From the NCBI GenBank assembly GCA_040080835.1, contig JBEBHP010000020.1, positions 5,900-69,899 of the forward strand: a stretch of 64,000 nucleotides of DNA, written 5' to 3'. Shown here piece by piece: positions 2,756-33,994 of this stretch; the stretch's first letter is position 1, and each line of letters opens with the position of its first letter. Source of the DNA: Micropepsaceae bacterium. GTDB taxonomy: Bacteria; Pseudomonadota; Alphaproteobacteria; Micropepsales; Micropepsaceae. A model generated the notes under the pieces. The model saw nothing but the letters and a program-made list of their open reading frames with translations, made no database searches and was not told the DNA's origin. The position numbers and the translations under genes are program-made.

Positions 2756-2762
2756 TGAGGAT

Positions 2763-6511: not shown

Positions 6512-7602
6512 CCGTCCTCCTGATTAAACATGTACGCCATACCAAGTAATAGTGCAGTCGTTGCAGGTGCCCACGCAGCCAGCGCAACCGGAACTACGCC
6601 GGATACCCCCAACGCGCCTGCCACGTCGGTGAAGAAATACAGCACAAATCCAGTCAAGACGCTCGAGATAATGAGCCTTGCAGCCCCCCCAAGTCGCGCC
6701 AGCCGAAGCGAGAACGCCGCCGCTATGAATATCATAGCGCATAATAGGACCGGGCCTGCAAGCAATGCATGGTAGTGTAAACGGTGTTTGGTCGCCGAAA
6801 AGCCCGCCGATTCAGCCTGTTCGATAAAGTCGGGCAAGTCCCAAAATGCTATGGTTTCTGGGGTTGCGAAGCTTTCTTGAATTTGGTTGTGAGTTAGTGA
6901 CGTTTTCACATCAAGCAGCGGGTAAAAAACGGCAGGACGCTCCGGACCGGTAACCCAGGCCTCTTCGAGGTGCCATTTTTCCTTCTGCAGCGTGGCGACC
7001 TTGGCGTCGATTCGTCCCTTGAACGCCTCTTTGCCTTCATAGATGAACAGCACCACATCCTGGAGATGTAGACCGCTGTTCGATACGCCCTTGGCGTGAA
7101 TTACCGTCTGCCCTTTTTCGTCTCCCTGGCGCAGCCATAATCCGTTGTTCGAAACGGCCAGCAGCGATGGCCGACCCTGAATGTAGCGTGCCTGAAACTC
7201 CTCAAACCGTGAAATCAGTCTTGCAGCAAAGGGATTGTAGACGGTTGTCATGAACGTCCCGATCACGAGGGCCATGATCAGTGCCGGCGCCAAAAACAGC
7301 CATGCAGACACACCGGCTGCGCGCGCGATGATCAGTTCCTGGCTGCGGGTCATGCGCGCAAAGCACGAGATCGCGCCGAACATCACCGCGAAGGGCATCA
7401 TCTTTTCAGTGAGGTTCGGAAGTTTCAGCAGTGCCATGCCGATGACAATGTTGAACGGAACGTGTTCATGACCGGCCGTTCGCTGGAGCAGATCGACGAT
7501 GTCGATGACAAAGGCCAGGATCAGGCAGAATCCGAAGACAATGCCAACGCTGATCAGGAATTGCTGTGCCAGATAACGCGACAGGGTCCAGCTGATGTAC
7601 AT
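6508..7602 (-). CDS. lptG: LPS export ABC permease LptG
   Basis: 364-aa YjgP/YjgQ-type permease with 6 TM segments and a periplasmic insert. Second gene of the lptFG pair; 4-nt overlap with the lptD start. Confidence 0.9.
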   Translation of the reverse strand: MYISWTLSRYLAQQFLISVGIVFGFCLILAFVIDIVDLLQRTAGHEHVPFNIVIGMALLKLPNLTEKMMPFAVMFGAISCFARMTRSQELIIARAAGVSAWLFLAPALIMALVIGTFMTTVYNPFAARLISRFEEFQARYIQGRPSLLAVSNNGLWLRQGDEKGQTVIHAKGVSNSGLHLQDVVLFIYEGKEAFKGRIDAKVATLQKEKWHLEEAWVTGPERPAVFYPLLDVKTSLTHNQIQESFATPETIAFWDLPDFIEQAESAGFSATKHRLHYHALLAGPVLLCAMIFIAAAFSLRLARLGGAARLIISSVLTGFVLYFFTDVAGALGVSGVVPVALAAWAPATTALLLGMAYMFNQEDG

Positions 7603-7603
7603 C

Positions 7604-8731
7604 TCAAGCCCCTCCCGGCGTTGCGGCCACGATGCCGGAACTCTTCAGGTATTCGAACCTGGGCACAGACAGCATGAACAGGATGCCCACGATCCAGATC
7701 GCAGGCCAAAGGTACATCGTGAATGCGGCATCCGGCATCGAACTTGTCATTTGCTGAAATGCAAACCCTGGAAGCCGCGCGATCAGCACGGCACCGCATG
7801 CCAGCGCAATTCGCCCGCCGTAGCCACGCCGGTTAAATGTGCCGCCAACAAGCGCGTATACGCCAATCAGCGCAAATACCAGACAATACAGAGGGCTGCT
7901 GAGGCGATTGTGGGCGTCAGCGAAGTATTTCCGCCGTGCTTTGTCCGACACCGTTTTTTCAGGATAGAGAAGTTCATTGAGGTACCGCTCGCTGGCCTCG
8001 CGCGAACCTTCGTCACGCGTCTTGTCGAACTGTCCGAGATCGAACGTATACTTTTCGAAGTCCAGTACCTTTAGCCGGCCCGCGCCGCCTTCAAGCCATT
8101 GCACATTGCCCTTGTACATGATCAGCCGCGGACCCTGCGGCGTGTTTGCAAGCACGCCGCGCTGAGCCATATAGGTGGCGATGCCCTTTGGATTTCTGGC
8201 GTCGTGCACGAGTATGCCGCGAATGTCCCCACCCGCATTGTTTTCCGAAACATAGACCGTGAGGCCGGCGATCGGGTTAGTGAACGCACCCTCACGAACA
8301 AATGTGTTCACGAGGTCGGCGCGGATCTCGAAGACGCGATCCTTCACTTCACGCATGCCGGCCGGCATGATTGCAAGATTGGTCACGTAGGCAGCGATTG
8401 TCGTCATGATGGCCAGCGACAGGATGGGCCACACGACAGCCCAGCGATTGAAACCGGCCGCCCAGATCACGACGAGCTCGCTTTCGACATACATCCGGTT
8501 CAGCGCATAGATCACGGCAATCACCAGCGCGAAAGGCAACAAGAGCCCGATCACCTGGGGCAGCGCAAGGATGGTCAGATAAAGATAGGTGGCCGCTGAC
8601 TGGCTCTGGTTGATGACAAGATCCAGCATGCGCAGCGACTGCGATAGCCAGGCGACGCCTACCAGCGCGAACATGAAAAAGATGAGCGGTCCCAACACCT
8701 GCCGGAAGATATAACCTTGAACTCCGGACAT
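7604..8731 (-). CDS. lptF: LPS export ABC permease LptF
   Basis: 375-aa YjgP/YjgQ-type permease, divergent from pepA as in the canonical pepA<>lptF-lptG arrangement. Confidence 0.9.
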   Translation of the reverse strand: MSGVQGYIFRQVLGPLIFFMFALVGVAWLSQSLRMLDLVINQSQSAATYLYLTILALPQVIGLLLPFALVIAVIYALNRMYVESELVVIWAAGFNRWAVVWPILSLAIMTTIAAYVTNLAIMPAGMREVKDRVFEIRADLVNTFVREGAFTNPIAGLTVYVSENNAGGDIRGILVHDARNPKGIATYMAQRGVLANTPQGPRLIMYKGNVQWLEGGAGRLKVLDFEKYTFDLGQFDKTRDEGSREASERYLNELLYPEKTVSDKARRKYFADAHNRLSSPLYCLVFALIGVYALVGGTFNRRGYGGRIALACGAVLIARLPGFAFQQMTSSMPDAAFTMYLWPAIWIVGILFMLSVPRFEYLKSSGIVAATPGGA

Positions 8732-8945
8732 GAGTTACGCGCCCATTGCTTTTATCGACACTGCTCGCTTCACATTGATCCGCCACATCGTTACAACCCG
8801 ATGCGTTACTGCAAAGTTAGGACATTAGCCGTTGCGATAATGCGGGCCGCCAAACTGAACGACACCCGAATAGTCCAGCCGCCGGGTCCAGGCAACAACT
8901 TTGGCTGATTTCCTGAGAATTTCTTGATCAAAGAGATAACGTCAC

Positions 8946-10433
8946 ATGCAAATAAATTTCACCCGGATCGACTCGTCTGAAGACGGAGCCCTCGCCGTGG
9001 GGGTTGCCGCGTTCGATGACGACCTGCCTGATTCACTGGCAGCACTCGACAAAAAGGCCAAGGGCGCCATCGCCCGGGCTCTGAAAGCGGCAAGGTTCAC
9101 CGGCGGCAAGGGTCAAATGGCTGACATTCTTGCGCCAGCCGGCCTCGATCTCGATCGGCTCGTCGTGGTTGGCCTCGGCAAAATCGATGATTTTGGCAAG
9201 CAGCAAGCGCACGATTTTGGAGCGGCGGTGACAGCCCGCCTGTTAACCAGCGGCGAGAAATCTGCCACGCTCAGGTTGCAGAGCCCGTTCGTGGATAACG
9301 CAGAGCTTGCATCGGCAACAGCTTTTGGCGCCCTGCTGCGCGCCTATCGCTTTGACCAGTATCGCACGACGCAAAAAAAATCGGAAAAGCCAACGCTTGG
9401 GAAAATAAGCATAGAATGCAGTGACCCGGCAGACGCCAAGAAAGCCTGGCGCGCGCCGGAGGCAGTCGCCAAGGGCGTCTATTTCACCCGCGATCTTGTC
9501 TCCGAGCCGCCGAATGTCCTTCACCCGGAAGAATTTGCCAAGCGAACACGCAAGCTCGAAGAACTTGGCGTCGATGTCGAGATACTTGGCGAAAAGGAGA
9601 TGGCAAAACTCGGCATGAACACGCTGCTCGGCGTGGGGCAGGGCTCCGAATGCGAGTCTCAGCTTGTCGTAATGCACTGGAAGGGCGCCAAGGACAAGAA
9701 CGCGACCCCGATCGCTTTTGTCGGCAAGGGCGTCACCTTTGATACCGGAGGCATTTCCCTGAAGCCCGGCCCTGGCATGGATGCGATGAAATACGACATG
9801 GGTGGTGCCGGAACGGTGACCGGCCTCATGCATGCGCTTGCAGGCCGCAAGGCCAAAGTCAACGCAATCGGCATCATCGGTCTCGTCGAAAACATGCCGG
9901 ACGGCAAGGCGCAGAGACCTGGTGACATCGTGAAATCGATGTCGGGTCAGACAGTTGAAATCCTGAACACCGATGCCGAAGGCCGCCTCGTGCTTGCTGA
10001 TGCACTCTGGTACTGCCAAAACCGCTTCAAGCCGAAATTCATGGTGGACCTCGCGACATTGACAGGTGCGATCCGTGTCTCTCTCGGTCTCGAGATTGCA
10101 GGCCTGTTCTCCAACAATGACGAGCTCGCCAGCCGGCTTGCAGCAGCCGGCAAGGCCGAAGGCGAAGAGTTGTGGCGCATGCCCATGAATGAACGCTTCG
10201 ACAAGCTGATCGACAGCCCCGTCGCCGACATGAAGAACATCGGCGGAGCCTTTGGAGGTTCGATCACGGCGGCTGTATTCCTCCAACGCTTTGTGAACAA
10301 GGTCCCATGGGCTCACCTGGATATCGCGGGGACAGCCTGGGCGGAAGAATCCCGGGGGGTGACACCCAAAGGCGCCAGCGGCTTTGGTGTCAGGCTGTTG
10401 AACCGTCTGGTTGCTGACTACTACGAAAGCTGA
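8946..10433 (+). CDS. pepA: leucyl aminopeptidase (M17)
   Basis: 495 aa with the M17 signature [14 protein letters not shown] and metal ligands ([11 protein letters not shown]). Confidence 0.95.
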
Positions 10434-10897
10434 TGCCGGAAGTTCTTTTCTATCATCTGGAACGGGCAAGCCTTGAAGACGTCTTGCCCGGCCTGCTTGA
10501 AAAGTCCCGCGAACGGGGCTGGAAGGCGCTCATTCGGGTCAGTTCGCAGGAGCGCCTGGAGGCACTGGACAGCCACTTATGGACATACAAGGAAGAAAGT
10601 TTTCTTCCTCACGGCACGTTCAAGGATTCTCGCGCAGCCGATCAGCCGGTATTGCTGACAACCGCGGACGGCAACCCCAATGGTGCAAACGTCGCGTTCT
10701 TTGCCGACGGCGCCAACCCGGACGACTGGACATCAGACCTGGTGAAGGCCTGCCAACGCATAGTGCTCATGTTCGATGGCCGAGATCCCGCAGCGATGGA
10801 AAGTGCTCGCGCGCAGTGGAAGCTCGCACGCGCCACTGGCTATGACACGACCTATTGGCAACAAACCGAACACGGAGGTTGGGAAAAAAAAGCCTGA
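10433..10897 (+). CDS. holC: DNA polymerase III subunit chi
   Basis: 154 aa with the N-terminus MPEVLFYHL...LLEK..ERGW and HLWTY...FLPHG. Overlaps the pepA stop, in the conserved pepA-holC pairing. Confidence 0.85.
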   Translation: MPEVLFYHLERASLEDVLPGLLEKSRERGWKALIRVSSQERLEALDSHLWTYKEESFLPHGTFKDSRAADQPVLLTTADGNPNGANVAFFADGANPDDWTSDLVKACQRIVLMFDGRDPAAMESARAQWKLARATGYDTTYWQQTEHGGWEKKA

Positions 10898-19879: not shown

Positions 19880-20830
19880 CTAGTTTTTGACCCTTGGCTT
19901 TGCCTTCGCCGCTTTCGCCGCAGCCTTCGTGTCTTCGCTGGCCATGTAGTCGATCAGGGCGGTTGCTTCCTTCTCGCCTAGGCCAAAATTGGGCATCGGC
20001 ATGTCCTTGTACTTGGCCCTGAGCGCGGTTGCGACCGGATCACCTTCTTCGATCATCTTGTCGGGCTCTCTGATCCAGCGGCTCATCCAGTCATGCGGGC
20101 GCGATGACGCGACCCCAAGAAGGTCCGGACCCAGCCGGTCGCCGCTGCCCATTGTGTGGCAGGATACGCAGCGCGTTCGGAAGAGATACTCGCCCCGTGA
20201 CTGCGGCGGCAGTTGCCTTGCCACGGAGTAGTCCTGCTTCGTCCCCGCAATCGAGGTGGCATAGTTCGTCATGCGGTCAGTCAGCAGGTTCGCAAGCACA
20301 ACAGGGTCGTCATAGACCGAGCGCTTGATCCACTGGCCGGTGGTCTCGTTGGCCACCATCACGCTGGTGTCATGGTCGCGTGGCTTGCCCGGCTCGAATA
20401 CGCGCATGGCGAGCTTCTGCTGGATCAGCTTGATGTCTTCCTTGGCGCCCGTCAGGAACAGCCATCCCGGCTTCAGGCCAAAGGTGTGCATGTAGGTCTT
20501 GAGGACCTCGGGCGTGTCATGGTCCGGATCAATGGTGATCGAGTACATGTGGAAGTCCCGACCCACCCTGTCGCCAAGCTGAGCCTGGACCTGCGACAGC
20601 TGCGCCGTGTCCGCCGGGCAGATGTCCTTGCAGTTCGTATAGATGAAGTTGATCGTGACGATCTTGCCCTTCAGCAGGTCGTCATAGAACCGGTACCTGT
20701 TGCCATCCTGGTCGGTCAGTTCGACATTGGGGAAGTAGTTCCCGTGCCACTCGGCCGCAAGCGTCCAGCCAGCTGAACACAGCATCAGCGCAAGGGCCGC
20801 AACCAGGCGAACAGGCAGCTTGTGGCGCAT
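19880..20830 (-). CDS. SCO1/SenC copper chaperone fused to mono-haem cytochrome c
   Basis: Signal peptide, then a thioredoxin-fold SCO motif (FIYTNCKDICP, a CxxxC) with YSITIDPDHDTP. The C-terminal class I cytochrome c domain has CVSCH and a GPDLLGV...MPMPNFGL context. Confidence 0.85.
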   Translation of the reverse strand: MRHKLPVRLVAALALMLCSAGWTLAAEWHGNYFPNVELTDQDGNRYRFYDDLLKGKIVTINFIYTNCKDICPADTAQLSQVQAQLGDRVGRDFHMYSITIDPDHDTPEVLKTYMHTFGLKPGWLFLTGAKEDIKLIQQKLAMRVFEPGKPRDHDTSVMVANETTGQWIKRSVYDDPVVLANLLTDRMTNYATSIAGTKQDYSVARQLPPQSRGEYLFRTRCVSCHTMGSGDRLGPDLLGVASSRPHDWMSRWIREPDKMIEEGDPVATALRAKYKDMPMPNFGLGEKEATALIDYMASEDTKAAAKAAKAKPRVKN

Positions 20831-20849
20831 TCAGGTCTTTCCCAAAAAG

Positions 20850-20877
20850 GTCATGGCCCGCGCGAGCGAGCCATGAC
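20850..20877 (-). other. stem-loop in the MCO-SCO spacer
   Basis: gtcatggc / gccatgac forms an 8-bp inverted repeat with a 12-nt loop inside the 69-nt intergenic spacer. Confidence 0.3.
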
Positions 20878-20899
20878 GGATGTTCAGATGCAAGCCCTA

Positions 20900-23173
20900 T
20901 CAGTTTGCCGTCGGCAGTCCAAATGAAGGCTCATAGAAGGTGCCTTCCCAGGTCTGTCGCGGAGTCGGGATCGCAAGCGTCTGGCCAGGGTTCACCGAGT
21001 CCCACCGCAGAAGCATGGCATGGTCTTCATGCTGCGTGTTGTGGCAGTGCTCCATGTAGGTACCTGCAAATTCCCGGATGCGGATCGCAAGATCGACCGT
21101 TGCCGTCGAGTCGGGTGATACACCGATGCGGTACACGTCCTTGCGGGCGAAGGTTTCCCAGATCGGCGGGGCGACACCGCCACGCTGCAGGATCCGGCCT
21201 TCTTCGAAATGGATGTGCACGGGATGGCTCCAGCTCTGGCCCAGGTTGATCAGGTGCCAGATCTCAAGCGAACCTTTCTTTGGCGCCGCAGAGTAACGGT
21301 GGGGGTCCATGCCAAAGCCCTGGCCGCCGTCCGTCTTGATGGTCCACGGCGCAGCGTCGGTCGCATTCGCGCGGCCAAACTCGAACGTGCGCTGGCGGGC
21401 TGTCGACAGTTCTGCTGGCGTCATGACCGGCAGCGGGATCATCTGCTTCAGTCCTGCAACATACTGGGCAGGGTCCATGCTGAGGTCACTGTAGGTGTAG
21501 CTTGTCGTGTCGACACGGAACTCCATGATGCGTCCAACAGCCGGATCACCTGCGTAGGCGCCGCTGATGATGTCGGCCAGCGGAATTTCCCTGTTCGGAC
21601 CCATGCCGTTCACATGCTCAAGCAAGTTCACCATGTAGAGCTTGGTGCCGTTGGCAAGGTTCTTGAAGTCGATGACGATGTCGTAGCGCTCTGCAATCCC
21701 TTGCGTCGGCAGGTCCTGGCTCTGCGCGTTCGGGAACGGAACCGTGTGCTGCATCAGGTTGCCGTCGTTGGCCACCATGTAGTACGGCACGCGCACGCCT
21801 GCAGCCGTCACGATCGCCAGCTTGAAATAGCGCGAGACCGAGCCGTTCAGGATGCGGAATCGGTAACGTCGAGGACGAACCTTCAGGAATGGCTTGTAGG
21901 TCCAGTTCACGAGGACCCGGTCACCCAGGAAGCCATCCGTGTTCAGCGGATTGAATGTCAGCTGACCATTGGCGTCCCAGGCCTTGTCGGCGACGAGCAG
22001 GTTGACGTCGTAGTCGCGGTTGCCCCAGTCAAGTGCCGTGCCGCTTGGCAGACACATGTTCGGGTTGGCGGCGTTGGTGTAGTTGCACTTCAACCCCTCG
22101 CGACCGCGGTCGATAGATGAGTAGTAGTTCATCATCGCGGCGCTGCCCTTGTAGACATTCTGCGCCGTGAAATCGAGCATGTGGTCATGGAACCAGTGCG
22201 TGCTCATGGTTTCTTTCCAGTCACCACGCAGACGCTTGATGCCGCCGGCACCGTCCGGCATTCCGGCCCAGTCGGTGGTTGCTGTCGTGTTGATGTTGTC
22301 ATAACCCGCGATGATCATCGGCCAGCGATAGTCGTAATACTGGCCAGGAAAGAAGTAGGCGGCGGTATAGCCGTCGCTCTCTGCCGGGTTGTGACCATTG
22401 TGTTCGTGTGTCGACAGCGTGTGGAAGCCGAATCCGTTCGTCGCCGACGCATCAATCGGCAGCATGTTGTAGTGACGGAACAGGACGGGCTCGCCATAGC
22501 GCGCCATCAGCAGCTTCGGTGGCATGGTGCCGTCAAAGGTCCAGACGGAGTTAGCCTGCTGTGCAGGGAAGTTTGGATGGAACCTGACAGCGGTATTGGT
22601 GTTGGTTCCACCGTGATTGTAAAGTCCGCCTGGCTTGAATTCACCGACGGCATAGTGGTGTCGCTGCAGTGAATCTCTCAGTCCAAGGTTGGTGCGCGCG
22701 CCCGCTGAAGCCGACTGGAAGTAGACCTTGGGTGGAAATTCCGTCAGCCGCTGGTGGGCAAAATACTCGCCGCTCGGGCGCCCTTCAGCTGCGCTCTTGG
22801 CAAGCGCCTGGCCAATGCAGGTACCAATCGTTGCGGCCCACGGGTTGGGCTTGGTGGTGTTCGCCAGCCTGGTCATCCCCGGGCTCAGCGCCTGCTTCAG
22901 GAACGTGTCGATCGACGCAGACGCAGGTCCAAGCGTGCAGCTCTGCGGTGCTGGTACCGGCGTACACGTCGCGCAGGTCGTGCCGATATACGGCTTCGTG
23001 CCGAATTCCTCGAACAGCATCATTTCCTGTTCGAATTCACCCGCGTTGAACAGCGGGCTTGCTGGCAAGCCTGTCGGAATGCCTTGCGCGAGCGCCGAGC
23101 CCACGCCGAATGAAGAAGCGCCGCTCGCCAGCAGAATGGCACCCAGCGTCTTCGAGAATTTGTTCCTGACCAT
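20900..23173 (-). CDS. multicopper oxidase (CotA/bilirubin-oxidase-like, 3-domain with long N-terminal extension)
   Basis: All four copper motifs are present: HTLSTHEHNGH, HWFHDHM (22178..22198), HPVHIHFEEG and HCHNTQHEDHAML. There is a Sec-type signal. The start is placed at the ATG at 23173, preceded by AAGGGA; the ORF track begins at a TTG at 23188. Confidence 0.9.
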   Translation of the reverse strand: MVRNKFSKTLGAILLASGASSFGVGSALAQGIPTGLPASPLFNAGEFEQEMMLFEEFGTKPYIGTTCATCTPVPAPQSCTLGPASASIDTFLKQALSPGMTRLANTTKPNPWAATIGTCIGQALAKSAAEGRPSGEYFAHQRLTEFPPKVYFQSASAGARTNLGLRDSLQRHHYAVGEFKPGGLYNHGGTNTNTAVRFHPNFPAQQANSVWTFDGTMPPKLLMARYGEPVLFRHYNMLPIDASATNGFGFHTLSTHEHNGHNPAESDGYTAAYFFPGQYYDYRWPMIIAGYDNINTTATTDWAGMPDGAGGIKRLRGDWKETMSTHWFHDHMLDFTAQNVYKGSAAMMNYYSSIDRGREGLKCNYTNAANPNMCLPSGTALDWGNRDYDVNLLVADKAWDANGQLTFNPLNTDGFLGDRVLVNWTYKPFLKVRPRRYRFRILNGSVSRYFKLAIVTAAGVRVPYYMVANDGNLMQHTVPFPNAQSQDLPTQGIAERYDIVIDFKNLANGTKLYMVNLLEHVNGMGPNREIPLADIISGAYAGDPAVGRIMEFRVDTTSYTYSDLSMDPAQYVAGLKQMIPLPVMTPAELSTARQRTFEFGRANATDAAPWTIKTDGGQGFGMDPHRYSAAPKKGSLEIWHLINLGQSWSHPVHIHFEEGRILQRGGVAPPIWETFARKDVYRIGVSPDSTATVDLAIRIREFAGTYMEHCHNTQHEDHAMLLRWDSVNPGQTLAIPTPRQTWEGTFYEPSFGLPTAN

Positions 23174-23238
23174 GTGACGTCCCTTCAATTTTCTAAGGCA
23201 GATGAAGCATCTTCAGTACTGCCTGATGTCCCCGTTTT

Positions 23239-23285: not shown

Positions 23286-26200
23286 TCAAAGATGGAAGTC
23301 TGTGCTGACCAGGGTCGGCTCAGCCGGTTGCACATAGCCGCGCAACAGGATTTCAAAGTCAGCAGACAGGTTGTCGTTCAGGTTGCCCTGGATCAGTGTC
23401 GAGTCGAGCGAACCATTGCCGTCCGAGTCAAACAGCTGCCACCTGATCTGGCCGGCTGCCAGTGTGGCGCCCACCGTCGGATCGCTGAACGCCGCACTGC
23501 CGATGAAGTCGAAAGCCTGGTTGCCCGAAACCGTGGTGTTCGCATCGATGCTCGTGAGGTCGATGATGTCACCCTCGGCATGGTGGAAGTCCGTGATGAT
23601 CGACCGCCCGCCCCCGGTGCCGACGCCACCGCTCGACAGATACTGGAAGATATCGGCGTCGATCCCACCCGTCATCGTTTCAACACTGTTGCCAGCGATG
23701 AACGTGTCAATGCCGCCACCGCCGACAAACGTCACCGCGTTGGCGCCTCCCGCGGTACGACCCGTGAAGGTGTCGTTGCCCGAACCGCCGATGAAGGTTT
23801 CGATTGTCGACTGCTGCAAAAAGGCTGAAAGAACGTCGGTACCGATGTCCGTTCCGGTCGCGACCGCAAAGAACAGGTTTCCAATCACGTTGTTCAATTG
23901 CACCGTAACCGCATTCGTCGCAGCACTCATGTCAAGTGTGTCCGCACCTGCGCCACCATTGTAGGTATCGTTGCCGTCTCCTACGAACGCGATGAAGGTA
24001 TCGTTGCCATCGTCACCCGCAAGCGTGTTGTTGCCGGTATTTCCGGTGAGTACGTTTGCCAGGTTGTTGCCGGTGCCGTTGATGTTGCCTGTTCCCATCA
24101 GCGTCAGGTTTTCGACGTTGTTTCCAATCGTATAGGTGACGAACGATTGGACTGTGTCGGTGCCTGAACCCGCACCAGCGGCTTCGGTAATCGTGGTCAG
24201 GCCCGTCCCGCCGGTGTTGTGGCGCACGATGTAGGTGTCGTTGCCGAGACCGCCGATGAGCGTGTCCGTACCAGCCGTACCGCCATCCAGCGTGTCATTG
24301 CCGCCATTGCCGCGCAGCGTGTTGTTTGAGGAACTTCCGACAATGATATTGTCGTCGACACTGCCAGTGACATTCTCGATGCGGAACAGCAGGTCAGCGC
24401 CTGTAAGCGCACTCGTCGCCGTCCCACCCTGCGTGAGGTCGTTGGTGTTCGTCAGGTCGACATTCGTGTTACCGGCCGTGGACGCCATGTTGTAGGTGTC
24501 GGTACCCGTGCCGCCATCGTAGGTATCGTTGCCGTCACCAGTGCTTGCAAAGAACGTGTCGTTGCCAGCGCCACCCAGGACAAAGTCATCGCCCAGACCA
24601 GCGGTAATGCTGTCGTTGCCACCATTGCCGAAGATAAGGTCGATAGCAGCAGTGCCGGTGATGTTGTTGCCGCTTGCGGCATCGATGATGTAGTGCACCG
24701 CCGACCCATTCACGGTGTTCGTGTCGCCGTTGCCATCTGTATATGTAGACGTCACGCGGACAAGCCTTCCCGCCGCGCCGGTCGTGCCCGCCGGATTGAA
24801 GAACCGGGTGTCGGCACTGATCTGCGGCGCCGGAACCGGCAGCCAGGTCAAGCCATTGTCAGTTGACGTTTCCCAGACCAGCGTCGTCAGCTCATCAAGA
24901 ATGCCGCCGTCCGGGTCCTGCAGAGTGGAAAGTTGCTGCATCTGTGGAGCATTTGCTCCCACGACGCCTGTAACCGATACGTCTCCGATCAGGATCTCGT
25001 CCGTCACCGCAGGCGACAGGTGTCCTGGCGCGCCATCGTTGATGTTGCCCTGACCGTCCTCGTAGGTGATCGCCACCGAGATCGTATGCCCGATGTCGGT
25101 TTGCTGAACGATGTAGTCAGCGCCAATTGCTCCAGAAATCTCCACGCCGTCCCTGAGCCACTGAAACTGCTCGGAACCACTGGTGATGTCACCATCTGGA
25201 TCAAAGCCCAGGAACGCAGACAGTGAACCACCATTTGCAGCAGTTCCAGTCAGGAACGCAGGCGCCGTCCCGTCATCGACAGGCGCGACCGTGATGTTGA
25301 CCGTCTTTTCAGCACTCTTCAGCAAGCCGTCAAAGGCATAGTACTTGAAGCTGGCTGTACCCGCGAAGTCCTGCGTTGGCAGGAACGTGAACGTGCCGTT
25401 GTTGTTGAGAGTGACGGATCCATTTACCGCAGAACCAGGCACCAGCTTGTAGGCCAACGGATCGTTCGTCGGGTCCTGAGCCGCCAGGACGACACCGTCG
25501 AACAGCGTGTCTTCCAATGCGCCTGTGAGATCCACCGGATCCGCGCTCAGGAAGAATGGTGCACCACCATTGCTTATGACGTTGATGATGAAAGTGTCCG
25601 TCACACCCAGTTCTGTGCCAGGCGACCCGGGCGTGCCGACATCCGTTGCGGTGACAGTGATGCTGATCGGTCCAGTGACATTCACCGTGCCGGTGATGTT
25701 CGCACCCGAGACGCCGCCCAATCCATCTGGAACCAGGGTGAACGTCAGTCCGTTTGCACCAGCCGTACCATCCAGCACATGACCATTCGACGCCAGTTTG
25801 GCCGTATAAATCAGGTTTGTGGACGCGGTCTCGTTGTCCCCGAAAGTGCTTGTGATTGGCAGGAACAGGTTGATCGGAACACCAGTGCGGGCGCCCGTAT
25901 CCGGCAAGCCCGCAGGATTTTGCTGCTGCACCACAAACGGTGCGGTATTGACAGCCAGGTTTGGAAGCAGCAGTGCGGTCGGTGCCGAATTCACCGTTTC
26001 GTGGAACCCTTTGCCGTCCACAAAAGTCTCAACGACACGCAGCGCGTTTCCAAGCACCGCGTTCGTTGGGTTGAACGTCAGGCTGTCCGTGTTGGGGATG
26101 TTGACCCACTGCAAGCCACCGCCTGCGGTGACCATCTGCTGCTGCCACTGGAAATGCACCGATCCAGGTGCGATACCGTCCGAGTCAGTAACCGTCGACA

Positions 26201-29200
26201 CCGCCACTAGCGGAGTCCCGACAAAGGCATTGACCGGCGTCGCAGGGTTGCCATCATCATCGGTGATGATGAGAGAGCCACCAGGCAACGCGTTGTTTAC
26301 CGGTCCGTCTCCGATGTTGATGGTCACGTCCGCGAACTGAAGGCGCTCGATGTTGCGAACCTTGTCCACGCCGTCAGAGATCAGCACGCCGCCTCCGATG
26401 CCGACCGTCGCATTGTGCGTGATCGTGTAGAAGCCTTCTGCGTCCGGCGCGAAGCTGATCGAGTAATTCGAGAACACGTCACGATAGACAGCGGTATCGA
26501 TGTCACCGTCCGTGATGTCCCAACGGATTTCGCGGATGATGTCGGCACCAGCCACGCCGTGCTGAACCAGGTCAACGTGCAGCCACGCATCACCATCGAT
26601 GATGTCGTTGCCACCGCGGCCTGTGATCATGTCACTGCCATCGCCACCAAGAAGAATGTTGCCGTTGTTGAAACCGAGCGGATTCGTTACAGCGGCGATT
26701 GGCGTATCCGGCGCGAAGTTCGCCGCTACACCGCCTGCGAAGAATGTGTTGAGGTTGAAGATCAGGTCAACGTTTGTCAGCTCGTTCATGACACCGGCGG
26801 CACCGCCCCGGTCCTCTGTCCCCTGCATGAAGTCGTCAAACTTCGTGCCGCTGGCAGCTTCAGTTTCGATAAAGAAGTCACGCACCGCGTCACCGGCCAG
26901 CTGTTGCTGGTTCGGAATGAACTCGCGACGCTCCATGTCCAGGCTGACGCCGTACTGTTCTTTTTCGAAGTCGGCCCAGTCAAAGCCCAGCAGTCCGTTA
27001 AACTTGTCGAAGCCGCCTTCGCCCAGCATGATGTCGTCGCCGCTGAAGCCGACCATCTTGTCGCCAAAGGTGCCACCGTCGAGGACGTCGTTGCCCGCGA
27101 AAAGAGGCACTTGACCCGTTGGTGCGCCAGTGTCGCCGACCAGTCCGTCGCCGCCTGCACCACCTTCAAGCCAGTCGTCACCTTCGTTGCCGATCAGTGC
27201 GTCGTCGCTGTCACCACCGATGAGAATGTCGTTGCCGGCACCGCCCTGGGCTTCGTCTCCCAATGTCGCATTGCCGGTTTCAACGTAGTCGTTGCCGGCT
27301 CCGGCAAAGATCAGGTCGTCGCCCTGGCCACCATTGATCCAGTCGTCGCCCTCTTCGCCGTGAATGACGTCGTCGCCGGCGTTGTCGACGATCGTGTCGT
27401 TGCCGGTACCGCCATAGAGGAAATCGTTGCCGTTTCCACCGTCAATCCAGTCATTGCCCGCATCACCCCAGACGGTGTCGTCGTCTGCATGTCCCGCAAG
27501 CAGCCGGTCGTCACCCGCAGTGCCGCCAAGCACCATCGTGTTGCCGAAGAAGTTGTCATCGCCAATGAAGTGGACTGTTCCATCAGGCAACACTTCAACC
27601 AACAGCGCACCTGAAACCGGATTGCGAAGCCAGGTCGAAGAATCCGTTGCGATTCGGTGTCCGTTGATGTCGAGAAGGAAGTCGCCGTTGATGTCCTTCT
27701 GGAAGTACGACCCGGCTTCAATCGTATATTCCGGCGTCAGGAAGATGCTCGCTGGAATGTGTCGCGCGCCCGTATTCGCGATGATCATGTCCGCGAATGA
27801 GTTGTTTTCGATCTGGAATCCGAAGTCCATGCCTTCGATGCGCGGCAGGTAATAGAGCCGGTCGGCATCCTGGAGCGCTTCCAGTTGGGTTTCGAAGATG
27901 AAGTTGAAAGTTGAGCCAAGCAGGCCACCAAACAGGTTCTGCTTTTCGGCCAGACCACCGATCCACAAATCGATCGTATCCAGGCCCGTGACCGAACCCG
28001 TCGCCCACATCGCAGCGTGCGTCACGCCGTCGTCGGCAGTGCCCGGCAAGAGATCCGCACCAACGTCAATGTTCATCAGAGCGTTGTTGATGTGCGACCC
28101 GCCAGCCCACGTGTCGTCGGCCGTATTCAGCTTCGCATCACCGCCGACAACGCGGGTGTTGTTCGCCCAGTCGCCAAGGCTGTGCATGAAGTTGTAGGCA
28201 TCCTGGTGCTGCGCATCACCCGACGCACTGGCAGGGTCTGATCCCATCGTGATCAGATCCAAGGCTGCAGCGCGTTTTGCCAACATGGTCGATGCTGACG
28301 TGATCGACGAATGCGAGCCATAGGCCGCAATGAAGTTGATCAGTGAACCTTCATGCTTGAGGAATTGGCCAAACTCGAGCCAATTCGCATAGGGTTTCAG
28401 CGTTGCATCGTTCGTCGCGTCGTAGATCTGGGCGCGCACGAGGTTCAATGGCGCAACGCCGGTATCGCGGCCACGTGCGATGTTCAACGCGGCAAGGTCG
28501 AGCGGCAGACCCAAAAGGTTGTTTCTCAAGGCGCCGGTGACGAACTCGTCGATTTCGCTACCGATCTGGTGCGTCGCGCCCTGGATGATTTGCTGAGTAC
28601 CATCCGTGCCAAGACTGGCGAACAGCAGCGGGTTGGTAAAGGCCTGGATCAATCCCACATCTGTCAGAACGGGTTGACCATCGGGCCCGATTACCATCGT
28701 ACCGTCTGAGTTCGTTTCGAATATCGGAACGTTTTCGTCGAGCATCGAATGGCCAAAACGGTATACCGCATTGGCAAACTCGGACGTGATCGCCGGATCG
28801 AGGTGAATGTCGTTGTTGCCGAACAGGTGGATGGTTGGCGCTACCTTGCGGGCGAATTCTTCGAACACGAGATGCTGGTATTGCGTTTCGGTACCGAATT
28901 TCGCCGCCTGGAAGATGCGTTCGCCATTCCATTCGCCGGCCTGGATGCCATCCGCAAGGTTGGTGCCGGCCAAGACCCATTCGGAAGCAAAAGCGCTATC
29001 GCCGTTTGCAAGCTCTGCGCGAACCATGTCCTTGATCTGGTTGACCAGGCGATTGTGTTCGCTGTGGAAGATCTCGTGGACGGTTATCAGCGCAATGTTT
29101 TCGTTTACGCGACCATCACCGGCGATGTAGTGCGCATCCAGAAGTTCGTTGTCGTAGGTGCCAGCGCCTGGCGTGTTGCCGGCCAGTGTATCGCCGTCCT

Positions 29201-30608
29201 GCGCCAGCAGCACATGAGTCTGATTGTCGAACGGCGAGGCCGTCGCTGCCATGTCGTTGATGAAGGCATGGTCCGTGAATTGAACCGTACCACCTGTGGC
29301 TGTCTGAATTTGCGCAATGGTCAGCGGAGCGCTGGGATCAAGCACAAACGCAACGATGTTTGCACCCACCTTCACAGAAATCTGAACGTGGCCGGTTGCT
29401 GCATCTGGCGTGAAGTTGCCATAGGCATCCGACAGGAGAACGGGAACGTTGCCGACGTACTTGTCTTCAAGTACCAGACCGAACTTCAGGGCGTTCGCCT
29501 TCACATCGCTCCACGTCGCCATGCCCGAGTTGTCATCGGCATTGCCGAGAACTCCATCCTTGCCGGCCGCATGCTGAAGCAGGTTGCCGGTCGTGTGCAG
29601 CTTACCGTCGATGCCTAGGATGTATTCGCGCAGGAACACCTGGTGCGAAGGATGCGAAGAGTAGGTCTGGTTCTGGTCGACGAAAGGCGAAGTGGTGTTG
29701 ATGTTCTCGTGAATATCGTCGGACGTTCCGATGATACCGTCAGCGCCCGCCGATACAGTCAGGTTGGTCGCGCGCGTCAGCGCCATGAACTGCAGATTTG
29801 GATTTGTAATTTCATCGCCGGTTCCGGCAATGCCGTCCGGACCCAGTGTGATCAGTGGGTCATCTGCTGCAAGCGGGATGAAGACTGTTCCCTGGCTGCC
29901 CTTGGTGATGAGATCCAGGCCGTGATCGAAGAACTGACCGAAGAACGTCATCCAGCTGTTGAACGGCGCCGAGAGGCCTGCGTCCGGTGTCACGTTTCCG
30001 ATGAACAGGTTGACTTTGTCGGCGGGCGAGAGGTCGTCAGAGTTTCCTGAAATGCCATCAGCGCCCCACAGGTCGTCGACATTGCCTGCGATTCCGTCAA
30101 GGCCCGCGCCCCATGCATCGTCGGCGGTACCAAAGACGCCATCTGCACCGGGTAGAATCAGGCCACTGGGGTTAGACGAGAAGTCGGTGTAGCCGTCGCC
30201 GAGCTGTGCGGCGAAATCCTGTGCGGCTTGAAGGGCTGCGGGGTTGTTTGCACTGATGTCCGAGATCAGATTTGAAATTGTGCGTGGGGCGCCATCAACA
30301 ACATTGACCCCCATGATTGCGCCCGGTGCGGTTGACGCATAGGTCATGAAATCGCCTGCAACACCGCGATGGGCGTCGAAGATGGTTTCGTCGACATTGA
30401 CCGTGCGGAAATACTCTTGCGTGTAGGTGGCGAAGGGCTGGTCGGCCGACCCAAATGTGCTTTGCCCGGGAACCGAGTTGTTGTTCGTTCCCGCAACCTC
30501 TCGCAGACCAAAAGCCAGATGCGGGCTGACCGGAGGTGTGTTGGTCTCAGCCATCTGGATCTGCGTCAGCAGGTACTGAAGGTCATTTTTTGTAAATGTA
30601 ACAGCCAT
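23286..30608 (-). CDS. giant secreted animal-type haem peroxidase with RTX Ca-binding repeats (MopA-like)
   Basis: The distal-His motif [10 protein letters not shown] maps to 29913..29942. [22 protein letters not shown] is also present. The proximal-His motif RFGHSML maps to 28740..28760. [15 protein letters not shown] and DLWIGGLAE complete the peroxidase signatures. Two blocks of GGxGxD nonapeptide repeats follow, then three ~60-aa W-x-W beta-domain repeats and an uncleaved C-terminal T1SS-type tail (..[11 protein letters not shown]...STDFHL). The ATG at 30608 is preferred over the TTG at 30614. Confidence 0.95.
   Translation of the reverse strand: [2440 protein letters not shown]
23580..24677 (-). 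repeat. RTX nonapeptide repeat block 2 (ORF-track aa ~1980-2345)
   Basis: [27 protein letters not shown]...[10 protein letters not shown]...AGDDGNDTF...[10 protein letters not shown]. Confidence 0.9.
27000..27536 (-). repeat. RTX nonapeptide repeat block 1 (ORF-track aa ~1027-1205)
   Basis: [47 protein letters not shown]..., consecutive GGxGxDxUx units. Confidence 0.9.
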
Positions 30609-30991
30609 GGTCAAACACCCCTAGAATTTCCGGGCTTTCGCGCCTTTGGTTACAGCTCTGCAACCTTTGAGCCCAAAGCGCGCACCCGATTTGTTGAATC
30701 TCGACGGCACAATTCCCGCACCGCGCAAACTCAATCTGCAACCTGACGGGAAGCTGACTTGTTAGTGCGACGGCCTGTCGCACTTCGGGCTTGGAATAAA
30801 CTGGAAGTGCCATTTTTTTGGCTGGAAAATAGGAAAACCATTGATGGTCTCGGTGCCAAAAAAGCCAGAAAAAATCAGGGTTTTTTGAGGACTGTTAGAG
30901 GGTGGGAAATGGGTGCCAATTGCGAATGTCTCATATGTGCAGCACGGCTTCGTCGAATAGGTATTAATACTAATTAGTAGGGATTAATTCC
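30609..30991. promoter_or_regulatory. AT-rich divergent control region (peroxidase operon <> atypical response regulator)
   Basis: 383 nt, visibly lower in GC. It contains homopolymer runs (T7 at 30813, A6 at 30858, A6 at 30869, T6 at 30881). There is a 9-bp inverted repeat, ttttttggc (30814-22) / gccaaaaaa (30855-63). Three AT palindromes (attaat, taatta, attaat) lie at 30963-30988, directly before the GTG start. Confidence 0.5.
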
Positions 30992-31729
30992 GTGCGCGTG
31001 CTTTTGGGCGAAAATCAGCGACAATTCGGACTGCAGTTGCGGCAGCGGCTGCGTGCACAATGCGAGGTGGACTTCGCCAGAGACGTGCCAAATCTGAACA
31101 GTTTTCTACTGCAACGTGCTTACGGGTTAGTCATTTTGGCTATGGACGTACCTAAAGAAGACAGAATTAAGCTCATTGAGTTGTGCAAGCAGTTCTCGCA
31201 GAAAACAGCCATCATGATCGTTACCGATCCCGCGCCGGTGCATGAGCGCGTGCAAGCCCTCGAAGCAGGTGCGGACGATGTGTTGATGCGGCCCGTGCAT
31301 CTGGATGAGCTGGTCGCGCGCGCCAGGGCGCTGATGCGCCGTGCGGACGCGTCACTGCTGGCAAAGATACGCGTTGGCAATCTTGAACTTGCTGATGACG
31401 GCGAGATCTATTTCCACGGCGCGCGAGCAGTGTTGCAGCAGGCCGAGCAGAAAGTGCTGTCAATCCTGGTTCGACGTGCGGGTCGACTGGTCACCAAGTC
31501 GATGATCGACCGGGCAGTAACGGGTGTCGACAGCGAAGAGCTGTCGTCCAATGCCATCGAGCAGCGAATGTCGCGCTTGCGTAGGATACTCGACACGTCG
31601 AACACCAACGTGCAGATCAACACGATCCGCGGCTCAGGCTATATCCTGGAGGCAAGGCCGTTGCACTCTCGGGTCAATGAAGACCACGAGGACCAGGAAG
31701 CGACGGAGATGCGGGTCCACGGCGCTTGA
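30992..31729 (+). CDS. OmpR/PhoB-family winged-helix regulator with pseudo-receiver domain
   Basis: GTG start. The C-terminal wHTH is clear (RVGNLELADDG...LSILVRRAGRLVTKSMI...RMSRLRRIL...INTIRGSGYILE). The receiver fold is retained, but the acidic pocket DD is EN, the phospho-acceptor position is Ala (LVILAMDVP, codon 31139..31141) and the conserved Lys is Arg (DDVLMRPV). Confidence 0.85.
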   Translation: MRVLLGENQRQFGLQLRQRLRAQCEVDFARDVPNLNSFLLQRAYGLVILAMDVPKEDRIKLIELCKQFSQKTAIMIVTDPAPVHERVQALEAGADDVLMRPVHLDELVARARALMRRADASLLAKIRVGNLELADDGEIYFHGARAVLQQAEQKVLSILVRRAGRLVTKSMIDRAVTGVDSEELSSNAIEQRMSRLRRILDTSNTNVQINTIRGSGYILEARPLHSRVNEDHEDQEATEMRVHGA

Positions 31730-31745
31730 GGATTGCGTGATCGTT

Positions 31746-32018
31746 CTACTCTGCCGCCCGCTGACGAAGCGCCAGCTCGAACGGGACGACGTTCTCCGGT
31801 AACGGCTTGACCCGTGCACGTCGTTTGGGTTGCGGATCGGGCAGCCTTTCATAGATGCCTGCGTCTTCGCCGGCTTCCATGAAGGAGTCGAGCACCTCAA
31901 TAAGTTTCATGAACTGGAACCAGGCATACGGCGTTTGCGTGCCAGTGGTCATGCGGTCCACTGCCCAGTCTTTTAGAACACGCATCTGCGTGTCTGGCGT
32001 CCTTGCCGATTTCATCAA
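31746..32018 (-). CDS. hypothetical protein
   Basis: A 90-aa ORF with protein-like composition, convergent with the regulator. No motif recognised. Confidence 0.35.
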   Translation of the reverse strand: MMKSARTPDTQMRVLKDWAVDRMTTGTQTPYAWFQFMKLIEVLDSFMEAGEDAGIYERLPDPQPKRRARVKPLPENVVPFELALRQRAAE

Positions 32019-32101
32019 GCCCTACCCAAACTAGTTTCTGATCATCGCGAATCAGTAGCATCGAGATTGAGCCACCCCGGTTAATCGACACTTAATGCAG
32101 G

Positions 32102-33994
32102 TCAGGCGCCGCCGTCGACCGGCTTGCGTGCTGCTTCATAGGTCTCGGAGGCCTGCAGCCATGCTGTCTCCGCAACTTCAATCTGCTTCTGCAAATCCGC
32201 GCGCTGCTTTGTCAGCGAAGTCACCTGACCAGGCTCCTTCTCGTAGAGATCGGGCGCATTGAGCGCAGTCTCCATCTTCTGGAGGTCTGCCTGGAGCCTG
32301 GCGATCCGCTTTTCCGCTTCATCAGCGGCCTTCTTCAGCGGAGCAATCTGCGCGCGCCTGTCGGCTGCAGCCTTGCGTTCCTCCGCCTTGGTGAGCTTCG
32401 GCGCAGACGAAGCAGACTTGCTGCTGGCTGGCTTTCGTTCATCGAGCAGGACGCGTCGGTAGTCATCCATGTCCCCGTCAAAGGGTGTGACGCATCCATT
32501 GGCCACCAGCCACAGGCGATCAGCGCAGGTTTCCACCAGATGCGGATCGTGACTGATCAGAAGCACGGCGCCCGGATAGTCGTTAAGCGCCAAAACCAAT
32601 CCTTCTCGGCTGTCGATATCGAGATGGTTCGTCGGTTCGTCAAGAATAAGCAGATGCGGCGCATCAAGCGATGCGATCATGATGAGGAGCCGTGCGCGTT
32701 CGCCGCCTGAAAGGTTTCCAATGATGGTGTCGGCTTTGGATTCCGGAAACCCGGCAGTCCCCAATCGCGTGCGCGCTTCTTGCTCCCGGATATGGGGCAA
32801 CAGGTTCATGAGATGGCGCACGGGCGTGATGTTCGCAGACATTTCGTCAAGTTGGTGCTGGGCGAAGTAGCCGATCCTGAGACGTCGCGCCCTGGTCACG
32901 GTGCCTTCCATCGGTTTCAGCCGGCTGGAGATCAGCTTGGCGAATGTGGATTTGCCATTTCCGTTTGCACCCAGCAGGGCGATGCGGTCATCCGGATCGA
33001 TGCGAAGTTCCATGCCCGACAGAATCGCCCGGCCGTCGTAACCGGCACTCACGCGATCGAGGGCAAGAAGTGGCGGCGACAATTCCTCTGGTTCACCCAG
33101 CCGAAAAGGGGCCACCCGCTCGTTGGAGATACCGGCAATCGGCTGCAGCTTCGCAATTGCCTTCAGGCGGCTTTGCGCCTGACGAGCCTTGGAGGCCTTG
33201 TAGCGAAAGCGGTCGACAAAGGCCTGCATGTGCTTGCGCTGCACATCCTGTTTCGTGCGTTGTGCTTCAGCAACCGCCATACGCTCGCTGCGCGTTCTTT
33301 CGAAGGTGTCATAGTTGCCCGTGTAGAACGTGAGCTTCTTGTCTTCCAGGTGCAGGATTGAATCGACGGCGGTATTCAGCAAATCGCGATCATGACTGAT
33401 GAGAAGCATGGTTCCCTGAAAGCGCTTGAGGTATTGCTCAAGCCAGATCGAACCTTCAAGATCAAGATAGTTTGTCGGCTCGTCGAGGAGCAGCAGGTCC
33501 GGATTGGAAAACAGCACCGCCGCCAGCGCAACCCGCATGCGCCAGCCACCGGAGAACTCCGAGCATGGACGCAGTTGCGCCGCCGCATCAAAGCCAAGGC
33601 CCGCCAGGATTTCGGCCGCCCGCGCGGGTGCCCGGTGGGCGCCGATGTCGGAAAGCCGTGTTTCAATTTCGGCAATGCGCAAAGGGTCGGTTGCCGATTG
33701 CGATTCCGCGAGCAGGTTCGCCCGCTCGACATCGGCCTCAAGCACGGTGTCGATGAGCGAGGTGGGGCCGCCGGACACTTCCTGCGCCACGCCACCAATG
33801 CGCCAGTCTCGCGCGATGGTAATTTCACCACCATCAGTTTCGACTTCCTGGCGGATCAGCCGGAAGAGCGTCGTTTTGCCTGTTCCATTGCGTCCGACCA
33901 GGCCGACCTTGTGGCCGCCAGGAATATTTGCCGAGGCCTGCTCAAAAAGCGGCCGACCTTCGATCCGATAGGTAAGGTTGTTGATACGTAACAT
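32102..33994 (-). CDS. ABC-F family ATPase (Uup/YheS-like translation-associated factor)
   Basis: 630 aa with two Walker A sites (GRNGTGKTT, GANGNGKST), two LSGG signatures, no TM domain and a C-terminal coiled-coil tail. Confidence 0.9.
   Translation of the reverse strand: MLRINNLTYRIEGRPLFEQASANIPGGHKVGLVGRNGTGKTTLFRLIRQEVETDGGEITIARDWRIGGVAQEVSGGPTSLIDTVLEADVERANLLAESQSATDPLRIAEIETRLSDIGAHRAPARAAEILAGLGFDAAAQLRPCSEFSGGWRMRVALAAVLFSNPDLLLLDEPTNYLDLEGSIWLEQYLKRFQGTMLLISHDRDLLNTAVDSILHLEDKKLTFYTGNYDTFERTRSERMAVAEAQRTKQDVQRKHMQAFVDRFRYKASKARQAQSRLKAIAKLQPIAGISNERVAPFRLGEPEELSPPLLALDRVSAGYDGRAILSGMELRIDPDDRIALLGANGNGKSTFAKLISSRLKPMEGTVTRARRLRIGYFAQHQLDEMSANITPVRHLMNLLPHIREQEARTRLGTAGFPESKADTIIGNLSGGERARLLIMIASLDAPHLLILDEPTNHLDIDSREGLVLALNDYPGAVLLISHDPHLVETCADRLWLVANGCVTPFDGDMDDYRRVLLDERKPASSKSASSAPKLTKAEERKAAADRRAQIAPLKKAADEAEKRIARLQADLQKMETALNAPDLYEKEPGQVTSLTKQRADLQKQIEVAETAWLQASETYEAARKPVDGGA

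Follow-up and report, generated by a model that had tools for sequence, protein, structure and literature searches.

OmpR/PhoB-family regulators that lack the phosphorylation site of their receiver domain are known from several bacteria. ChxR of Chlamydia trachomatis, HP1043 of Helicobacter pylori and GlnR of actinomycetes combine a receiver with a winged helix, have a degenerate phosphorylation pocket and have no partner kinase, and regulators of this type act unphosphorylated as constitutive dimers on direct repeats (PMC4395418, PMC12632262, PMC3960148, PMC8345958). Two further orphan OmpR-type proteins, RitR of Streptococcus (a redox-sensing aspartate-less receiver protein) and CosR of Campylobacter (oxidative stress), are tied to oxidative or metal physiology, and RitR senses by a Cys and not through a kinase (PDB entry title; PMC4395418). 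Several percent of bacterial receiver domains are pseudo-receivers, and the Asp is missing from about 2% of OmpR-type regulators (PMC4395418); a 2025 review calls the activation mechanisms of pseudo-receivers a mystery (PMC12632262). Here we analyzed a 64,000-nucleotide stretch of a Micropepsaceae genome (the window), in which an OmpR/PhoB-family regulator gene (30992..31729, +) lies head to head with a haem peroxidase-multicopper oxidase operon. We are highly confident that its product is a pseudo-receiver, or aspartate-less receiver, protein. The reading that we favor, with a moderate degree of confidence, is that this orphan regulator works independently of phosphorylation and controls the peroxidase operon through a direct repeat in the shared spacer. 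Regulators of this class are already known and the locus adds no new principle; its setting beside a peroxidase-oxidase operon is new.

The regulator gene was defined from its open reading frame, Pfam, an AlphaFold2 model and Foldseek. It has a GTG start and encodes 245 aa, in which Pfam recognizes Response_reg at residues 12-111 (43.6 bits, cut-off 30.2) and Trans_reg_C at residues 147-219 (49 bits, cut-off 26.2). The pseudo-receiver domain spans aa 1-120 (30992..31351, +), and the winged-helix DNA-binding domain containing the Trans_reg_C match spans aa 125-221 (31364..31654, +). The nearest NCBIfam models are TctD, RppA, CopR, PmrA and PhoP, and as the protein scores far under the equivalog cut-off of each, it is a member of no named orthologue group. 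The AlphaFold2 model (mean predicted local distance difference test score, pLDDT, 87.5) is a (beta-alpha)5 fold followed by a winged helix, with the five receiver beta-alpha units at a pLDDT of ~90 or more. The top Foldseek matches are OmpR/PhoB-family regulators alone, and the receiver superposes on the PhoP receiver with a target TM-score of 0.88-0.89. Among these matches are the atypical proteins CosR, RitR and HP1043: RitR and CosR entries (5u8m, 5u8k, 8uvx) are among the closest fold matches, and HP1043 (2hqr) is found by both sequence and fold. The named aspartate-less members of the OmpR family are only 23-29% identical to the regulator and are not its orthologues.

The phosphorylation site was examined by aligning the receiver with regulators of known structure. 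In HMMER pairwise alignments to DrrD (1kgs) and BasR/PmrA (4s04), Ala50 faces the acceptor Asp (VILAMDVP against VILDIMLP and LIVLDLGLP), Glu7-Asn8 faces the Glu-Asp acidic pair, and Arg100 faces the conserved Lys (LMRPV against LPKPF). There are no gaps over beta3-alpha3 in either alignment, the same register was found in alignments of 29 and of 120 sequences, and the proline four residues beyond the acceptor (D+4, Pro54) anchors the register. In the AlphaFold2 model beta3 comprises residues 46-50, so that Ala50 is its last residue, at the site of the phospho-Asp, and Asp52 sits in the beta3-alpha3 loop at D+2, the position it also takes in all alignments. A preliminary description of this DNA, made from the sequence, had named structural equivalence of Asp52 with the acceptor as the outcome that would overturn its proposal; since Ala50 ends beta3 and Asp52 is at D+2, the two are not equivalent. 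The same description had reported an acidic pair changed to E-N, an Ala at the acceptor position and an Arg in place of the conserved Lys, and all three are borne out, the Ala50 codon (GCT, 31139..31141, +) by sequence, alignments and model alike. Its statement that the phosphorylation chemistry is gone holds for the acceptor Asp, the second residue of the acidic pair (DD2) and the Lys, but not for the conserved Thr, which is retained as Thr78. The regulator departs from a canonical receiver at these three of the five catalytic positions and is, as aspartate-less receivers are, a receiver recognized by profile that has neither the phosphorylatable Asp nor other catalytic residues. The key residues of the remodeled site are Glu7/Asn8, Ala50, Asp52 (D+2), Thr78, Asp79 (one residue after the Thr, T+1), Arg100, Val102 (two residues after the Lys position, K+2) and His103.

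These substitutions are the signature of a clade. A search of 5.8 billion proteins yielded 37 clade proteins (at least 51% identity, more than 175 bits), after which the next-best relatives fall to ~130 bits and are canonical, carrying VEDD...LDLxLPDGDG...KPF. We compared the 37 proteins with 83 canonical relatives in the 120-sequence alignment. At the D position, 34 clade proteins have Ala and 3 have Gly, whereas 82/83 canonical relatives have Asp. DD2, the position lost most often in pseudo-receivers (Bourret et al., PMC12632262), has no acidic residue in any clade protein (it is Gly, Val, Asn, Ser or Arg) and is Asp in 81/83 relatives. At D+2 the clade has Asp (36) or Glu (1), where canonical relatives have Gly (68/83). 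T+1 is Glu in 30 and Asp in 7 clade proteins as compared to Ala in 82/83 relatives; small residues at T+1 normally open access to the phosphorylation site (PMC12632262). The K position is Arg in 36/37 clade proteins and Lys in 83/83 relatives, and K+2 is Val in 31/37 against Phe in 81/83; when K+2 is Val, Ile, Leu or Ala, receivers are biased to active conformations (PMC12632262). Other parts of the site persist: the first residue of the acidic pair (DD1; Glu7 in the regulator) is Asp or Glu in all 34 of the 37 clade members without a gap at this column, and the Thr78 position is Ser or Thr in 35/37. His103 and Cys65 are invariant in the clade and show no conservation in the canonical relatives. 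Cys65 lies in alpha3, where the canonical relatives have a hydrophobic residue, and is probably buried.

The pseudo-receiver family is a small and narrow one. When 1.84 billion cluster representatives were searched with a profile, the matches comprised only three representatives of the clade, a sister aspartate-less group (P0121/P0122) with Ala at D, Asp at D+2, Glu at T+1 and Val or Met at K, and one further, more degenerate protein; canonical regulators rank after these.

The receiver is under strong purifying selection and is constrained as much as the DNA-binding domain: between close pairs, the ratio of nonsynonymous to synonymous substitution rates (dN/dS) is 0.03-0.04 in the receiver and 0.05-0.10 in the DNA-binding domain. 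These values bear on the reading that the gene is a decaying two-component relic encoding a non-functional pseudo-regulator, as might be suspected from the loss of three of five catalytic residues and from the canonical two-component system that sister genomes place on the orthologous operon (see below). The low receiver dN/dS, the intact reading frame in all loci, the confident AlphaFold2 model and the clade-specific invariant residues make a relic very unlikely, to the point that we regard it as hardly tenable.

A histidine kinase is missing from the neighborhood, as the preliminary description had noted. Pfam finds no kinase domain in the genes flanking the regulator, and the contig that contains the window (C22) has no HATPase_c match; all 49 HATPase_c matches in the genome are on other contigs. 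We considered as a displaced partner a 46%-identical homologue of the kinase that is linked to the peroxidase in sister genomes and rejected it, as it has no visible link to the oxidase cluster. The kinase homologue, at L088 (G000:C19) 5115-7236, has a regulator adjacent and lies amid genes for a polyhydroxybutyrate (PHB) depolymerase and a major facilitator superfamily (MFS) transporter.

With 49 HATPase_c matches elsewhere in the genome, the receiver might still be phosphorylated by a remotely encoded kinase, at Asp52 or elsewhere, which would make the regulator phospho-dependent after all, though in a non-standard way. Asp52 is kept as Asp in all but one clade member, Thr/Ser78 is retained, and CheY D57N is phosphorylatable at the neighboring Ser56. 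Set against this are the D+2 loop position of Asp52 in every alignment and in the model, a DD2 that is never acidic in the clade, the change of Lys to Arg, and a bulky acidic residue at T+1 where small residues normally give access to the site (PMC12632262). We consider phosphorylation of this receiver distinctly improbable. The preliminary proposal of an atypical OmpR/PhoB regulator independent of phosphorylation is instead supported by site losses that are fixed in a clade under purifying selection and with a contig without a kinase.

The presumed targets of the regulator are three genes on the opposite strand, assigned by Pfam. The first encodes a haem peroxidase of ~2,440 aa with repeats-in-toxin (RTX) repeats (23286..30608, −), and the second and third, together at 19880..23188 (−), encode a 762-aa multicopper-oxidase-like protein (20900-23188, −) and a fusion of SCO1/SenC to cytochrome c (19880-20830, −). 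The peroxidase matches An_peroxidase (174.5 bits) and HemolysinCabind (156.9 bits), as well as Big_9 and Cadherin_5. Its animal haem peroxidase domain precedes Ca-binding RTX repeats, so that it is MopA-like in architecture, according to the description in PMC13689576; that the window peroxidase oxidizes Mn(II) is assumed from this likeness.

The divergent pairing of regulator and peroxidase is found in the window and in L001, L002, L003, L054-L057 and L059-L061, that is, in all clade loci whose contig reaches the peroxidase, with a spacer of ~375-383 nt; the contigs of L058 and L062 stop short of the peroxidase gene. The L002 locus, labeled as a Micropepsaceae metagenome-assembled genome, has a peroxidase orthologue with 59% identity. 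In L003, whose regulator is 51% identical, the downstream neighbor differs (SCO1) and the pairing with the peroxidase persists. The L003 gene convergent with the regulator (2420-3037, −) is a stand-alone SCO1/SenC copper chaperone, another copper-handling neighbor. Two of the sequences used, L001 (CAZYFM010000198.1) and L004 (CAZXAQ010000150.1), bear the title 'uncultured Flavobacteriaceae bacterium'. These labels look wrong: both contigs appear to come from genomes (G165 and G137) in the alphaproteobacterial genus of the window, with whose genes theirs share 63-91% identity.

Across 151 genomes of the order, orthologues of the regulator occur only in the window's genome (G000) and in G010, while G137 has a sister aspartate-less protein with 42% identity to the regulator. 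The peroxidase is present in 12/18 genomes of the window's genus, and none was found in the 132 searched genomes of other genera. We distinguished three configurations. In configuration A, that of the window, the regulator is divergent from the peroxidase-oxidase-SCO genes and there is no kinase. In configuration B (L004, G137:C150), a canonical regulator and a CusS-like kinase lie together with the peroxidase, and the aspartate-less sister is oriented divergently from all three. In configuration C (L081, G138:C1; L083, G039:C1; L084, G021:C1), a canonical regulator and kinase are co-oriented directly upstream of the peroxidase and the aspartate-less regulator is missing; the gene order in G138 is oxidase, SCO-cytochrome c, regulator, kinase, peroxidase. 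The peroxidases of these sister genomes (G138, G039, G021 and G137) are 72-74% identical to that of the window, their canonical regulators have 221-241 aa, and their kinases (HAMP/HisKA, 473-503 aa) include the CusS-like sensor of G137.

The regulator and the oxidase genes also come and go together. In G094 (L095, G094:C68) the site is empty: genes matching window positions 4310-10897 abut a 90-aa gene with an 8-nt gap. From this we infer that window ~10898-31745 (~20.8 kb) is a variable island, with cyclase and tetratricopeptide repeat (TPR) genes, a glutathione S-transferase (GST) gene, the oxidase cluster and the regulator. In G111 (L096, G111:C64) the peroxidase, the multicopper oxidase and the N-terminus of the regulator are deleted; all that remains of the regulator is a C-terminal piece (aa 169-239, 56% identity), flanked by the 90-aa core gene and the SCO-cytochrome c gene (L096 5628-5840 and 6025-6906). 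The 90-aa gene has its counterpart in the window at 31746-32018 (−), convergent with the regulator, without a Pfam match and present in 33/35 genomes of the genus with 55-91% identity. We considered it as a MirA-like inhibitor and rejected it because it is a core gene of the genus regardless of whether the regulator is present.

This joint gain and loss is the best available support for a dedicated role, and together with the conserved divergent pairing it supports the earlier suggestion of a private regulator of the oxidase cluster. On these comparative grounds the regulator is rather likely to be dedicated to the peroxidase-oxidase operon. A passenger of the variable island that controls other genes or acts globally would also be linked to the peroxidase, since the ~20.8 kb segment is absent from G094 and the linkage could reflect co-transfer, and most of the loci come from one genus. 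Against a passenger, the head-to-head arrangement and the ~375-383 nt spacer are kept down to 51% identity while other L003 neighbors differ, the conserved elements of the spacer (see below) occur only where the regulator is present, the 42%-identical sister in G137 is again beside a peroxidase cluster, and the regulator is truncated in G111, a genome without peroxidase and oxidase. A passenger role is in our view unlikely.

The spacer, a divergent intergenic region of 383 nt (30609..30991), separates the ATG of the peroxidase (30608), which is conserved and sets its limit on that side, from the GTG of the regulator (30992). We built a conserved-block map and alignment of 11 orthologous loci and counted conservation over 10 orthologous spacers. 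The preliminary description of the spacer had overlooked its conserved elements: a CTGAC repeat, an adjacent palindrome and a GGAATAA block. The first is a tandem direct repeat, AACCTGACG-N3-A-N-CTGAC (30740..30758, +), which is invariant in 10/10 spacers. Its CTGAC units at 30743 and 30754 are phased by 11 bp (CTGAC-N6-CTGAC, 30743-30758), the flanks vary between spacers, and the strict 19-nt form occurs once within the window. The second is an 8-bp inverted repeat, AGTGCGAC-N5-GTCGCACT (30764..30784), either a protein-binding palindrome or an RNA hairpin, of which a 6-bp core is kept in 10/10 loci. The third, the GGAATAA block GGAATAAACTGGAA (30793..30806, +), is at a fixed distance from the direct repeat and is possibly a promoter element. 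The three elements have fixed mutual spacing, 241-253 nt upstream of the regulator start, and are seen only with the regulator; they are missing from the configuration C loci, which have canonical two-component systems. A degenerate version, AACCTGACG ... GAGAATAAAGTTGG, is found upstream of the sister protein in G137.

Two points make the CTGAC repeat the best operator candidate: dimers of OmpR-type proteins occupy direct repeats spaced by about one turn of the DNA, and the recognition helix does not vary. The segment SxNAIEQRxSRLR of this helix (invariant columns 185-197) shows no variation across the clade. Direct repeats of 10-11 bp are the usual site architecture of OmpR/PhoB regulators, and those of ChxR are cited in PMC4395418. 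We tentatively predict that CTGAC-N6-CTGAC is the operator of the regulator, an assignment that we put at somewhat below even chances.

Nearer to the regulator start are three direct repeats with 10-bp phasing, ATTAAT/ATTAGT/ATTAAT (30963..30988, +), which are conserved in 8/10 loci, weak in L003 and absent in L060. The preliminary description had listed these as three AT palindromes; the sequences are there, but they are better read as direct repeats with 10-bp spacing. They overlap the Shine-Dalgarno sequence AGGGA (30979-30983), just ahead of the start codon.

The same elements can be arranged differently. The conserved module of direct repeat, hairpin and GGAATAA block could act in cis as an RNA leader in the peroxidase mRNA, or could be bound by another factor, with the regulator binding elsewhere, for example at the ATTA repeats 30963-30988 in autoregulation. 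Changes in the inverted repeat are informative here, as in the minus-strand (peroxidase-sense) RNA 3 are wobble pairs, 1 is compensatory and 0 break the pairing; all four changes pair in this RNA, and the wobbles would be A-C mismatches on the other strand. The ATTA repeats, with their 8/10 conservation, are similar to PmrA-type boxes, and among proteins of solved structure BasR/PmrA is one of the closest relatives of the regulator. A leader is not favored by Rfam: a scan of both strands of 30400-32200, with E values up to 10 allowed, returned two chance-level matches and no known riboswitch or leader. Moreover, a single compensatory event supports the hairpin. The ATTA repeats, for their part, share bases with the Shine-Dalgarno sequence, and despite the invariant recognition helix L060 has lost them and L003 has them in weak form, whereas the direct repeat is the sole element that is invariant everywhere and has the 11-bp phasing typical of the family. 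An RNA leader or a site of another factor is a possibility to be taken seriously, though an unlikely one. The control of the peroxidase operon by the regulator through the direct repeat is the reading we retain.

Several observations count against this preferred reading. CTGAC-N6-CTGAC occurs 10 times in the genome and its reversed control 12 times, which gives no ground for inferring a regulon. A sigma70 scan of the spacer found no promoter fitting either gene. The pairing of the palindrome is kept in the peroxidase-sense RNA, and it may form a leader hairpin; if so, transcription would start upstream of it and the direct repeat would lie in the 5' untranslated region, which is the position of a repressor site or an RNA element. 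In sister species the orthologous peroxidase comes with a canonical regulator and its kinase and without an aspartate-less regulator, which means that the latter is dispensable for the enzyme itself. Finally, most clade loci are from one genus, and the conserved synteny is in part shared ancestry, so that the loci are not independent.

Among other candidates in the spacer, a TTGNCA-like hexamer on the minus strand (30859-30854) was considered as a promoter and rejected, as it has no −10 partner at 16-19 nt. A sigma54-like motif, GGCAC-N5-CCGCA (30706-30720, +), and the GATTTGTTGAAT block beside it (30688-30699) are kept in most spacers, not in L003 or L060, and are unexplained. OmpR-type proteins are not sigma54 activators.

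The base composition of the spacer is as the preliminary description had it: AT-rich over 383 nt, with T7/A6/A6/T6 runs and a 9-bp inverted repeat (30814-22 / 30855-63). Its GC content is 0.483 as compared to 0.586 for the window, a value that ranks in the bottom 0.3% among segments of 383 nt, and the 200-nt segment richest in AT in the whole 64 kb falls inside it. The runs start at 30813 (T7), 30858 (A6), 30869 (A6) and 30881 (T6) and form a cluster (30813..30886) in the poorly conserved center of the spacer. Four runs of at least 6 are observed, whereas mononucleotide shuffles predict 0.15 and a first-order Markov model predicts 1.06 (P = 0.02). They are not conserved in L057, L002, L001, L059, L060 and L062, and orthologous spacers have 0-2 runs at non-homologous positions. 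The earlier proposal that the homopolymers act through curvature, through H-NS/MucR-type silencing or through slippage is left unsupported, as the runs lie in the poorly conserved part and are absent or non-homologous in the orthologues.

In the mechanism that we propose, the regulator would act without Asp phosphorylation, probably as a preformed (constitutive) head-to-tail dimer, and this dimer would bind CTGAC-N6-CTGAC (30743-30758) in the shared spacer. Binding would control the divergent peroxidase operon, and perhaps the regulator's own gene too, by activation or repression. The output would be set by the abundance of the regulator or by a non-kinase input on the remodeled pocket, for which the candidate residues are Asp52 at D+2, the acidic T+1, Arg100, Val102 at K+2 and His103. 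The arrangement of these residues may constitute a built-in phosphomimic, with the D+2 and T+1 carboxylates facing the Arg at the Lys position and an activating Val at K+2, and such a phosphomimic could lock the active, dimeric state. Alternatively, the remodeled pocket, together with the invariant His103 and Cys65, could be a direct sensor of metal or redox state. Given the three peroxidase set-ups in the genus, it is conceivable, although we give it a low probability, that a phosphomimic or direct-sensing pseudo-receiver has naturally replaced kinase signaling.

Dimerization and DNA binding are predicted by analogy with ChxR, HP1043 and GlnR, to which the regulator is only ~23-25% identical and from which it differs in its replacement residues: it has Ala at D, Asp at D+2, an acidic T+1 and Arg at K, whereas the D position of ChxR is Glu and HP1043 shows broad degeneration. 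HP1043 is also essential and regulates globally, while for the regulator of the window a single neighboring oxidase operon is presumed. RitR has Asn at D and its sensing Cys (Cys128) in the linker, whereas the invariant Cys65 of our regulator is in alpha3.

The canonical regulators of the sister genomes, each paired with a CusS-like kinase, belong to the same regulator family and have the same presumed target, the orthologous peroxidase with multicopper oxidase and SCO-cytochrome c. They keep all catalytic residues (Response_reg ~99 bits, as compared to 43.6 in the window's regulator) and are co-oriented with the peroxidase with the kinase adjacent, where the window's regulator is divergent. 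At ~30% identity (best E ~1e-22), the window's regulator is not a recent copy of them. In Pseudomonas putida GB-1, multicopper oxidase and MopA-type peroxidase genes are controlled by MnxS1/MnxS2/MnxR and FleQ (PMC13689576). MnxR is sigma54-dependent and phosphorylated, with two kinases, and FleQ responds to cyclic di-GMP; neither is an OmpR-type pseudo-receiver. The control of mopA itself is largely open, and the regulation of metal-oxidase genes is poorly known outside Pseudomonas (PMC13689576).

The regulator described here is a first candidate regulator for a MopA-type peroxidase-multicopper oxidase cluster in freshwater and soil Alphaproteobacteria. Its clade provides a clean comparative system, with a sharp residue signature, one presumed target operon, a candidate operator and a two-component counterpart in sister species. 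If the phosphomimic or direct-sensor reading is true, the clade would be a tractable system in which to study the switching of bacterial pseudo-receivers.

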